Source: Girardia tigrina
Lineage: Eukaryota
Direction: 5' to 3'
NCBI GenBank assembly: GCA_001938485.1
Contig: MQRK01226176.1
Coordinates: forward strand, 12,366 to 68,402
DNA: 56,037 nt
Each line of letters begins with the position of its first letter. Positions within the stretch are counted from its first letter, which is position 1. Below, piece by piece: positions 52,969 through 56,037 of the stretch. The notes beneath the pieces were generated by a model, which was given only the letters and a program-made list of their open reading frames with translations, did not search any database and was not told the origin of the DNA. Made by a program: the position numbers and the translations under genes.

Positions 52969-53629
52969 CTAAATCCAAGCGACATTAATTTTCATTGAAC
53001 GATTATAAATTCCACCACAAATGTATTGAGTTGTTCGGAAAGTAATTTTGGTTTTCTTTTCGGTGAAAATAAAAGACGATCTACGAATAATCAATAAATT
53101 ATATATTGACCATAGTGATCCTAAAGTTTTTGCCATCTTTCTGGTAGTAGCATTGTTCGGGATTCGAACATTTGAATTATTATAATTATTTAAATTATCG
53201 TTGAAATAGTTTTCTAGTCAAATCGAAATTGTGTACGTAATTTGGAGAAAAAATCGATTTATGTTAATTAATGGTCGAACTTGAAATTGATTGGGAAAAT
53301 TCGGACAATTTATGATTATGATTTTTTTGAATATAAATTTTTTATGATTGATTTGTGTCACGGAATTTTTTGATGTAAAAAATTGTTTTTGTAAAAAAAG
53401 ATAAAACAGAAAAAAATTATCGAAATTATAAAACATTTTTGTGGAGTGACCTTGAAAGTTTGCTTAGTCGTATAAATTAAATTAATGAGCATCAGTTTGT
53501 TTACAAATAAATTCATTGATAAAATGAATTCTTTTCTGGATAACTTTTTAATTTTTGCGTATCGATTTTGTTTAACTGCACCAGATTGTAATATGCTAAT
53601 CGCGATGTTAAGAAAGACCGTAAATATTA

Positions 53630-54886
53630 TTAGGGTGAACCAAAAGTCTTTTTGTATTTTCTACTAAATAAAGATATTTTATATACATGTGTTATGTTTT
53701 TAAAGTTCTTGAGCTGCTCTATCACAATGTATATTAAAACTTCTATTTAGTCGTTAATATAATTTTTATGATCTTTTAGAAAAATAATGGAAAATTTTGA
53801 AATCCGTGTTCTTTTACGCCATTACTGGAAACAGGGCTTAAACGCAACTGCAGCAACAGAAAAGATATACGAAGTTGAAGGCGATAATGTGGGCTCAAAT
53901 CGTACTGCACAAAATTGGTTCAAAAGGTTCAACGAAGGTGACATTGACCTCGGAGACAATACACGTTCAGGCCGACCTATCCCCGTAGATTCCGGAGCCA
54001 TTCGTGAAGCCGTCGAGACAAATCCATCAATAAGCACTTGCAGATTGTCGGCCGAACTCGATATTCCTCAAACATCCATTGTACGACACATTCACGCTCC
54101 TGGCAAGGTCAACAGACGAGATCGAGAAGTGCCTCATGAATTGACACAAATTCAAGCCAAAAAGCGTTTCGAAACTTGTCAAAAATTGCTTGAAAATCCG
54201 CGCGATAACCGTTTCATCCGTCGAATTGTAACTTGCAATGAAAAGTGGGTTTACTTCAGTAATCCAGACCAACAAAAGCAATGGTTGGACCCTGGACAAA
54301 TGGTGAAACCGGTAGAAAAACGAGATCGTTTCTCAAGGAAGGCACTTTTGTGTGTTTGGTGGAATTTCGAAGGCGTGATTCACTTCGAGCTGGTTCCAAA
54401 TGGTCGTACCATCGACGCTGACCTTTACTGCGCCCAGCTTGATCGAATGTATGCGGCACTTGGCGAGAAATACCCCACTTTGATCAATCGAAAGCGAGTT
54501 CTTTTACAACAGGACGATGCAAAACCGCACACTGCCAAACAAACAATGGAAAAAATCAAAAATCTCGACGCCTTGGAACTTCTTCCACACCGAGCGTATA
54601 GTCCGAATCTTGCGCCATCCGACTATCACCTTTTCCGCTCTATGGCACACTTTCTTCGTGGTCGCAGCTTCAATAATTTGGCCGAGGTCGAAAACGGGTG
54701 TCACCAGTTCTTCGCTTCTAAGAACAAGGATTGGTACCGCAGCGGAATCGCACAACTTGCCCATAGATGGGTTCAAGCTATAGATTCAAATGACCTTTAC
54801 TTTGAAACTTAAATGTTTTTTATTTGTTGTGAAATTATGTTTAAATTTTTAATACAAAATACGAAAAGACTTTTGGTTCACCCTAA
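53630..54886 (+). mobile_element. Young full-length mariner element
   Basis: 31-bp TIR TTAGGGTGAACCAAAAGTCTTTT(T/C)GTATTTT with one mismatch; TA TSD. Confidence 0.95.
53787..54812 (+). CDS. Mariner transposase, 341 aa, open frame but first catalytic Asp replaced by Asn
   Basis: HTH region, EVPHEL, IVTCNEKW, LLQQDDAKPH, YSPNLAPSDYHLF. Confidence 0.9.
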   Translation: MENFEIRVLLRHYWKQGLNATAATEKIYEVEGDNVGSNRTAQNWFKRFNEGDIDLGDNTRSGRPIPVDSGAIREAVETNPSISTCRLSAELDIPQTSIVRHIHAPGKVNRRDREVPHELTQIQAKKRFETCQKLLENPRDNRFIRRIVTCNEKWVYFSNPDQQKQWLDPGQMVKPVEKRDRFSRKALLCVWWNFEGVIHFELVPNGRTIDADLYCAQLDRMYAALGEKYPTLINRKRVLLQQDDAKPHTAKQTMEKIKNLDALELLPHRAYSPNLAPSDYHLFRSMAHFLRGRSFNNLAEVENGCHQFFASKNKDWYRSGIAQLAHRWVQAIDSNDLYFET

Positions 54887-55010
54887 TAATATTACGAAAA
54901 CATTAAATGATGCGACTTTCGATGCGCCGATTATTCTCGTCGATACGATTAATAAATCGTTTAATAAAGTCACATCGAAATTTGAAACATGTCTCAAATC
55001 TGCAGTGAAT

Positions 55011-55289
55011 GTCGATCTCGGACTCGTGGCTGGATTCCAGCAAGCTCTGTCGATTCGGTTCGATGTGAACATCTGTTGCTAGGATTATTCCGGATACGGT
55101 GTATCGACCGGTGATCCACTCAAGTGCGATATTTATGCTGACGCGGAAGCTGCATTTGAAGAATTGACAGACAGTTATAAAGTACCGCTAAATCGCATCG
55201 TCCTGTATGGACAGAGCATCGGCACATCCCCTACTGTCCACCTCGCCACTCGCAACAAAGTCGCCGGTGTTATTCTTCATTCATCTCTC
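55011..55289 (+). pseudogene. ABHD17: Intronless ABHD17 alpha/beta-hydrolase core fragment (in-frame TAG at 55080-55082)
   Basis: VDLG...[15 protein letters not shown]...IYADAEAA...[17 protein letters not shown]...VILHS matches the ABHD17 family ([26 protein letters not shown]). Confidence 0.88.
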
Positions 55290-56037
55290 AATAAATGGGC
55301 CCAGCAAAATCTAAATAAACCTCTGCACAACCCAGTCGCCTCCGTCCGATTCTCGAGGCAAGCTGAGGATCGGGCAGAACAAGCATGATTCCACGATCAT
55401 AAAATTTTTGGTCTTTGCTGGCAAAAAACTGATCCATGTGATTTTGACGTTCTCATTTCAGGTAAAGGTTTTACCTTCCAAAACATTTTGTAGTGACCGT
55501 AACATGTAATAATCCGAAGGCGCCAGATCGGGAGTATCCCGTTCAAGCTGTAAAGGCTGTAGACGAGTGACCAAACTTGTGTGAGATCTCACATTATCTT
55601 GGTGGAACACTACACCTTTTCTGTTGAAATGCATCATTCAGTTTGTCCAGCTGATGACAGTAGACTTCCGAATTAATTGTTGTGTTATACGGTAAAATGT
55701 CTAAAAACGACTCCTTTAAAATCCCACTATTTTGATGGATATTGGCTTTCGAAGTGCTTTGAGTCGATTTATCTTTTCTGATCCATGATCTCCTGTGTTT
55801 GACATTGTTATATAATCCAATTTTTCGTCCACAGTAATGATGCGCTTCAAAAATAATTATTTTCGTGACGTTTGAGGAGCAAATCAAGATTCGACAAATT
55901 TCTCTCTGTGAGGACATGGGGAACCCATATATCGAATTCAGGTGGTCATAAACAGTTGAATTCGATAAAATTAACCTCGCTGCGAGTTCACGTGTTGTTA
56001 ATCACCGAATTGCACTTATCAGCTTCAAACGGCCTTC

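Follow-up and report, generated by a model that had tools for sequence, protein, structure and literature searches.

We analyzed a 56,037-nt stretch of Girardia tigrina DNA (here called the window) and found that positions 53154 to 55381 are a solo long terminal repeat (LTR) of a BEL/Pao retrotransposon. In our reading, which we consider probable, LTRs of this family have a slot that holds swappable pieces of spliced host mRNA; the pieces are captured by template switching and kept if they lead into a ubiquitin-Gag reading frame.

The first-pass annotation had described a 969-bp TG...CA cassette carrying an in-frame ABHD17 core, and the ends, the flanking duplications and the length arithmetic all agree with it. 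The element opens with TGTTC at 53154, closes with GAACA at 55381 and is flanked on each side by AGCAT, that is, TG...CA ends with a target-site duplication in the 4- to 6-bp range looked for (Table 1). Its 2,228 bp minus 1,259 bp for a mariner transposon with its duplicated TA leave 969 bp; the mariner, which splits the LTR, had gone unmentioned. The frame arithmetic is likewise consistent: the 1,691 nt from the ATG at 53605 to the tail motif equal 1,259 plus 432 nt, and 432 nt is the same distance as in five uninterrupted ABHD17 copies (L007, L013, L017, L051 and L052). Comparison of the right part with the 1.43-Gb genome returned 1,705 candidates, 40 of which were scored, at 84 to 100%, so the cassette did not arise by chance. 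An exact 19-nt pattern of the LTR end occurred at 500 genome places (control, 0), giving a family of at least 500 LTR ends. The window copy itself is dead, being a solo LTR with a mariner within it and a stop codon.

Table 1. Features of the window LTR (positions of the window; +, forward strand)
Feature	Position	Strand	Remarks
Left 5-bp target-site duplication, AGCAT	53149..53153	.	
BEL/Pao-family solo LTR, 969 bp without the mariner	53154..55381	+	Many copies have these ends, often between 5-bp duplications
Upstream LTR part; promoter likely here	53154..53604	+	Common to LTRs with other cargo
Start codon and first codons of captured trans-spliced host mRNA	53605..53629	+	RNA-like contigs match from the ATG and continue with the spliced leader
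Mariner DNA transposon, inserted at TA	53630..54886	+	Duplicate TA at 54887-54888; 46-nt inverted arms; transposase Pfam matches
Mariner transposase ORF	53787..54812		
Remainder of captured leader piece	54889..55017	+	Last 8 nt (55010-55017), TGTCGATC, common to both donor mRNAs
Captured ABHD17 mRNA piece, 281 nt, ~93 codons, three host exons	55010..55290	+	Exon junctions 55025/55026 and 55259/55260
In-frame TAG, private to the window copy	55080..55082	+	Open in 27/28 distinct insertions aligned
GQSIG nucleophile motif	55209..55223	+	Intact in 18/29 copies
U5-like tail, common to the family	55291..55381	+	Open in the frame that full elements continue through the PBS into ubiquitin-Gag
ATGGGCCCAGCA, 3' edge of cargo slot	55295..55306	+	Complementary to the tRNA-Met(CAT) anticodon arm
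Right 5-bp target-site duplication, AGCAT	55382..55386	.	

Other transposon traces were seen at this and related loci. A second copy of the window locus (L002, G000:C250755), 94% identical and with the same mariner and right flank, is an allele or a segmental duplicate; it is open at the region of the window's stop codon but has a deletion in ABHD17. In the window (53628-53630) and in L003, which are separate LTR copies, two mariners hit the palindromic AATATTAATATT within about 3 bp, and BLAST detected no similarity between these mariners. A decayed pogo/Tc5-type DNA transposase (BrkDBD, HTH_Tnp_Tc5 and DDE_1) lies at 50739-52406 of the window, and the partial transposase of another mariner (55594-56001, minus strand) adjoins the LTR.

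The assignment to BEL/Pao was made from complete and partial elements that share the LTR. The sequence TGGTAGC directly follows the LTR end at 32 places (control, 0; 21 loci inspected), and a purine tract directly precedes the LTR start at 59 places (control, 0; 50 loci inspected). The same LTR sequence thus occurs as a 5' LTR before a tRNA primer-binding site (PBS) and as a 3' LTR after a polypurine tract. A tRNA-Met(CAT) gene of the genome has a 3' end complementary to the PBS and an anticodon arm complementary to the motif ATGGGCCCAGCA, which lies 86 to 89 nt inside the LTR end. A short CCACTGCG-like segment 3' of the motif in the LTR tail, for example in L046 and L107, complements the D arm. 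Read together, the PBS, the motif and the CCACTGCG-like segment suggest a putative three-part pairing with tRNA-Met. Pfam searches of the internal regions identified ubiquitin, a DUF1759 Gag, an aspartic protease, RVT_1 and Peptidase_A17 (Pao RNase H), with integrase domains downstream in L184, L200 and L228 and DUF5641 in L200; this is the BEL/Pao domain order, scattered over several decayed copies. Several copies lack integrase, since only about 430 nt separate their RNase H from the 3' LTR. An env-like gene, which is not obligatory, was not found in L200, where the integrase ORF stops about 100 nt before the purine tract.

Copies with two LTRs were found in short-LTR subfamilies (L075 and L082), both with 5-bp duplications, and the L075 LTR pair is 98.2% identical. 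The copies fetched did not include one with ABHD17 in both of its LTRs, the candidates L037 and L040 being cut by contig ends or insertions; in L037, an ABHD17-bearing LTR end precedes a PBS. One subfamily has a middle piece of HSP90 between the PBS and ubiquitin. The short-LTR subfamily (L073, L075, L082 and L245) carries 42-nt tandem units right after the PBS, which are a multiple of three and open in the frame leading into Gag. In L078, whose LTR carries INTS6, a 325-codon ORF of an FkbM-type methyltransferase (5859-6833) lies 3' of the protease region and is possibly an internal cargo.

We compared the ABHD17 piece with its host gene. The donor (L168/L066/L171) is 95.8% identical over three exons, and its two introns, of about 3.9 kb and 52 bp, are both missing from the LTR; the comparison with the host exon structure that had been proposed earlier thus shows three exons joined without their introns. 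In a contig from a run presumed to be RNA, precisely these 281 nt are present, flanked on either side by further host ABHD17 sequence. Two other candidate donors were set aside: L031 is a paralogue (41%) and L032 another hydrolase. As had been presumed, the piece is enzymatically incomplete. GQSIG is present, and the cassette does not include the host exon (L161-L163) that encodes the catalytic region further downstream; only 93 internal codons were captured, not the N-terminal Cys cluster and full Ser-Asp-His triad of an active enzyme. The ABHD17 scrap is probably passive cargo, not a working enzyme. The in-frame TAG, previously called a single lesion, is indeed private to the window. The name ABHD17 rests on the first-pass call, hydrolase Pfam matches and flatworm homologues, and the best named protein relatives come from flatworms; a PDB search gave no ABHD17 match. 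The AATAAA reported directly after the ABHD17 homology is there, at 55290, but it is not a family-wide signal. As a poly(A) signal of the family it was rejected, preceding the tail motif in only 6/38 cassette representatives.

Upstream of ABHD17, the window LTR carries a piece of a second host mRNA. A host transcript matches it from the ATG at 53605 to 55017, with its next exon in L181, and a 53-aa protein that starts at the same Met is 62% identical. This piece contributes the start codon and about 49 codons. The earlier ~90-aa N-terminus therefore stands in part: the ~49 codons from ATG 53605 are captured host sequence, but the rest is not, and the 40 codons from ATG 53485, open in the window, are closed by stops in most other copies. 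The donor presumably resembles flatworm M17 leucyl aminopeptidase. Searches for its name in PDB, a word index and a HMMER library returned only LTR copies, the 53-aa relative and an unrelated repeat protein. The donor mRNAs of this piece and of ABHD17 share the 8-nt TGTCGATC at their join, in the same codon phase; this is microhomology at one junction only.

The donor transcript is trans-spliced, and the captured piece begins at the first codon past the spliced leader. The 5' sequence of the transcript occurs at 17 genome places, 5 of which continue with a GT donor and most of those with an Sm-like site. By these sequence features we assign the five places as spliced-leader RNA genes. These copies (L277, L278, L280, L284 and L286) have a 42-nt exon ending in ATG and followed by the GT donor; an Rfam search of the leader genes found nothing. 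Other places, which join the leader to unrelated sequence, are likely processed copies. Capture of the spliced leader along with the cargo was considered and rejected: no leader sequence was seen in any LTR fetched, and none of the 16 places examined among the 17 matching the leader lies within such an LTR. The RNA evidence here consists of assembled contigs of runs presumed to be RNA, whose depth is uninformative on start sites and expression; coverage over the PBS is low in these contigs, and runs with small word shares were left out of the evidence.

Other LTRs with identical ends carry different cargo at the same position, directly upstream of the tRNA motif. INTS6, a phosphatase, Tudor, Hus1, a zinc knuckle, ubiquitin, a short-chain dehydrogenase, a PH domain and UNC-50 joined to ABHD17 were identified in the slot, as was USO1/p115 (by a PDB match), a second donor for which intron loss was seen. 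In both the ABHD17 and USO1 cases, introns are gone and the mRNA is partial, and the sense orientation was borne out by a six-frame scan. From their translations, we also take cassettes in L061 and L063 to be an HSP90 N-terminus joined to ABHD17, and another to be a HECTD1-like piece. The cargo of L038 presumably corresponds to a HEAT5-type N-terminus; a PDB search with it gave nothing, and the Atlas gave only generic HEAT repeats at low recognition. Cassettes occur in both 5' and 3' LTRs (INTS6 in the 5' LTR of L078 and the 3' LTR of L214), and stacked pieces are joined in frame (UNC-50 with ABHD17, the leader piece with ABHD17). Some cargo begins at a Met, as in the window leader piece, and the L230 type has a Met five codons in; exactly 119 codons are open in 11/25 rows of that type.

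The in-frame joins in the window had been taken earlier to suggest selection for a continuous ORF, and the cassette frame counts agree that an open frame appears favored. A first pass took in every motif-bearing end (141, of 38 types). The Gag-leading frame was the longest open one in 25/38 types among the forward frames and in 20/38 among all six. A second pass used 123 ends after duplicate removal, only copies with the end pattern, and dropped two types that came from protein searches; the corresponding counts were 24/40 and 18/40. The forward count gives p=0.0005 against 1/3 and p=0.008 against a microhomology null of 0.40, both values being optimistic because types share inherited junction ends and are not fully independent. 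The Gag-leading frame was not the longest in 16/40 types; two types have 60 to 78 open codons in a different sense frame, which for one type holds in 3 copies, and ubiquitin cargo is out of frame in one case. Antisense runs of 40 or more codons in the second pass numbered 3, 5 and 1 by frame. A Pfam scan of all 230 stop-free segments of 36 or more codons in the six frames of 38 representatives matched 6 types, all in sense and 5 in the Gag-leading frame, and none of the 116 antisense segments. Where the distance from motif to LTR end is 82 or 85, in about six types, the ATG within the motif shares the reading frame of the LTR end, and upstream forward runs are shorter than 30 codons, which fits the leader model.

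One explanation of this bias, which we regard as unlikely, keeps the same template-switch capture but places the slot in U3, ahead of the transcription start, with the cassette untranslated and the frame preference a by-product of codon-phased microhomology, inherited junctions and sampling. Both donors have the ABHD17-junction microhomology in codon phase, 6- to 8-mers shared by chance among 16 coding stretches are in phase in 40% of cases (the source of the null above), and an AATAAA sits at the slot edge in the window's subfamily. Against a U3 slot, sense runs of 40 or more codons in the 40 types fall 17:2:1 by frame in favor of the one leading into Gag, well above 0.40, and the distance from motif to LTR end is 2 mod 3 in 110/123 distinct ends. 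Moreover, 5 of the 13 PBS copies with a ubiquitin match, from different subfamilies, have one frame without stops from within the LTR as far as ubiquitin; the other 8 are frameshifted or closed in between, likely by decay. The tail that appeared to run off the end of the window cassette accordingly finds its continuation in 5' LTRs, through the PBS into ubiquitin-Gag. A slot forming the 5' leader of the Gag message best explains the frame bias, since cargo there must give a start and no stop.

We favor the following course of events for capture into the leader of the Gag message. Reverse transcription would be primed at the PBS and copy the ~90-nt tail, and by analogy with the split primer sites of Ty1/Ty3 (PMC5371799) we infer a pause near the tRNA-paired motif. 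Just past this tRNA-complementary site, the reverse transcriptase would quit the element RNA and copy a co-packaged mRNA, then switch onward or back by microhomology, and repeated rounds would stack pieces. The new piece would be duplicated into both LTRs and later spread as solo LTRs. If transcripts start upstream of the slot, copying would be less frequent for leaders that trigger nonsense-mediated decay or whose translation does not continue into Gag. Host deubiquitinases are predicted to cleave the product where the ubiquitin-like domain ends in Gly-Gly and so to free Gag whatever the leader.

The ubiquitin-like domain was examined for a fusion signal. Its fold is recognized by Pfam, and Gly-Gly is present in 12/17 rows, across two divergent subfamilies. 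The canonical C-terminus of ubiquitin is RLRGG; the C-termini here read LRLNGG or LRLKGG, and with this difference cleavage may be poor. Met codons occur between the PBS and ubiquitin, and a Met follows Gly-Gly in most rows, so Gag could also start without an LTR leader. A search for longer protein relatives of the ubiquitin-Gag start found none, which is weak evidence. More tentatively, and with somewhat more reservation than conviction, we view the BEL/Pao LTR as a natural in-frame gene trap that swaps host mRNA front ends at a tRNA-marked slot and borrows their start codons for Gag, with a ubiquitin linker cutting off the leader and solo LTRs scattering hundreds of promoter-bearing host-gene chimeras with open frames.

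A very improbable alternative is that selection acts on truncated ABHD17 or on the fusion, which might, for example, compete as an inactive protein in depalmitoylation and so aid the element or the host. The cassette has at least 30 distinct insertions and was rejoined to three different upstream pieces, as this reading would have it. We compared 30 distinct insertions (of 48 cluster copies, picked as best matches to the window) with the host exon. The pN/pS ratio was 0.81 for private changes (94 nonsynonymous and 36 synonymous), 0.62 for changes in 2 to 3 copies and 0.43 for changes in 4 or more copies, the last being a value in favor of selection that comes from 12 changes only. The same method gave 0.61 to 0.75 for Gag and protease of close decaying copies, which places the neutral baseline at 0.6 to 0.8, and 0.23 to 0.38 for distant copies; the internal HSP90 piece gave 0.42 to 0.63. 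The overall ABHD17 ratio equals the neutral baseline, and ABHD17 residues drift at the neutral rate. All 10 frameshifts were private and each of 8 stop variants was present in 1 to 3 copies; no stop or frameshift was common to 4 or more copies, a comparison of weak power because only 12 substitutions are shared that widely. Selection on ABHD17 is further opposed by the limited conservation of GQSIG (Table 1), by a daughter subfamily that swapped out all but about 8 codons of ABHD17 and also spread, and by other multicopy cassettes, including the USO1 and L230 types. The dN/dS comparison recommended in the first-pass annotation thus yielded ratios (0.62 to 0.81) without constraint beyond the baseline, and the special place given there to ABHD17 is not borne out: it is one among dozens of interchangeable cargoes. 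A DNA-level pack element (Pack-TIR or Helitron) or a LINE-made chimera without an LTR is scarcely credible: most fetched copies are solitary and end in short inverted repeats (TGTTC/GAACA) next to a 5-bp duplication, but introns are removed, the ends lack a poly(A) tail, and these ends also occur joined to a PBS, a purine tract and BEL/Pao gag-pol, and in two-LTR copies.

Capture into LTRs at a slot that is probably translated has partial parallels in known systems. Our template-switching proposal follows Tan et al. 2016 (PMC5131818), who described LTR-mediated retrocopies in animals, one mosquito case being flanked by BEL18_AG, and who cite maize Bs1. As in their retrocopies, the Girardia cargo is partial spliced host mRNA with short microhomology at the joins, multigene chimeras and further rounds of copying. 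Their cases are internal retrocopies flanked by LTR element sequence, and the words "in frame" are absent from the text (PMC5131818); in Girardia, unlike there, cargo lies inside the LTR at a recurring slot, spreads with solo LTRs, shows a bias toward the frame of Gag and can contribute a start codon. In the cytopathic pestiviruses BVDV Osloss, CP1 and CP Rit, host ubiquitin is inserted in frame, host ubiquitin C-terminal hydrolases yield the authentic N-terminus, and a piece of S27a can stand ahead of ubiquitin (PMC8310069). Both systems have ubiquitin of host origin fused in frame ahead of a protein of the element; the pestivirus insertions are sporadic mutants of an RNA virus with demonstrated cleavage, whereas the Girardia family has a fixed ubiquitin-like domain whose cleavage is predicted (PMC8310069).

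Bipartite primer-binding sites for tRNA-iMet are described for Ty1 and Ty3, and priming from the anticodon loop for Ty5 and copia (PMC5371799). The Girardia family resembles Ty1 and Ty3 in having a second segment complementary to tRNA-Met apart from the PBS; it differs in that its motif matches the anticodon arm and lies inside the LTR at the cargo edge, and its pairing is putative (PMC5371799). The giant planarian Gypsy elements Burro and GYPSM1, likewise flatworm LTR elements with host-like domains, have these domains fused into the first ORF (PMC6431247). They are about 30 kb long with fixed internal domains, whereas the Girardia elements are BEL/Pao with internal regions of a few kilobases and exchangeable LTR cargo (PMC6431247). 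The literature covered, to which subscription journals, Repbase and Dfam did not belong, contained no report of a swappable in-frame slot in a BEL/Pao LTR and none of a ubiquitin-Gag in BEL/Pao, for which a repeat-library entry may exist.

LTR elements are known to capture genes, but as rare internal accidents; here capture is recurrent at one LTR site, stacked and frame-filtered. If slot translation and ubiquitin cleavage are true, the family would perform exon shuffling at a high rate, yielding chimeric ORFs ready to translate, and would offer a natural data set on mRNA co-packaging and template switching by reverse transcriptase. The slot also explains the genome's many broken scraps of host genes with a common tail, which could be misannotated as paralogues. 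The cassette of leader piece and ABHD17 was also seen among proteins predicted from a metagenome collection (P0001 and P0024), which means that LTR chimeras of this kind end up as genes in protein databases.
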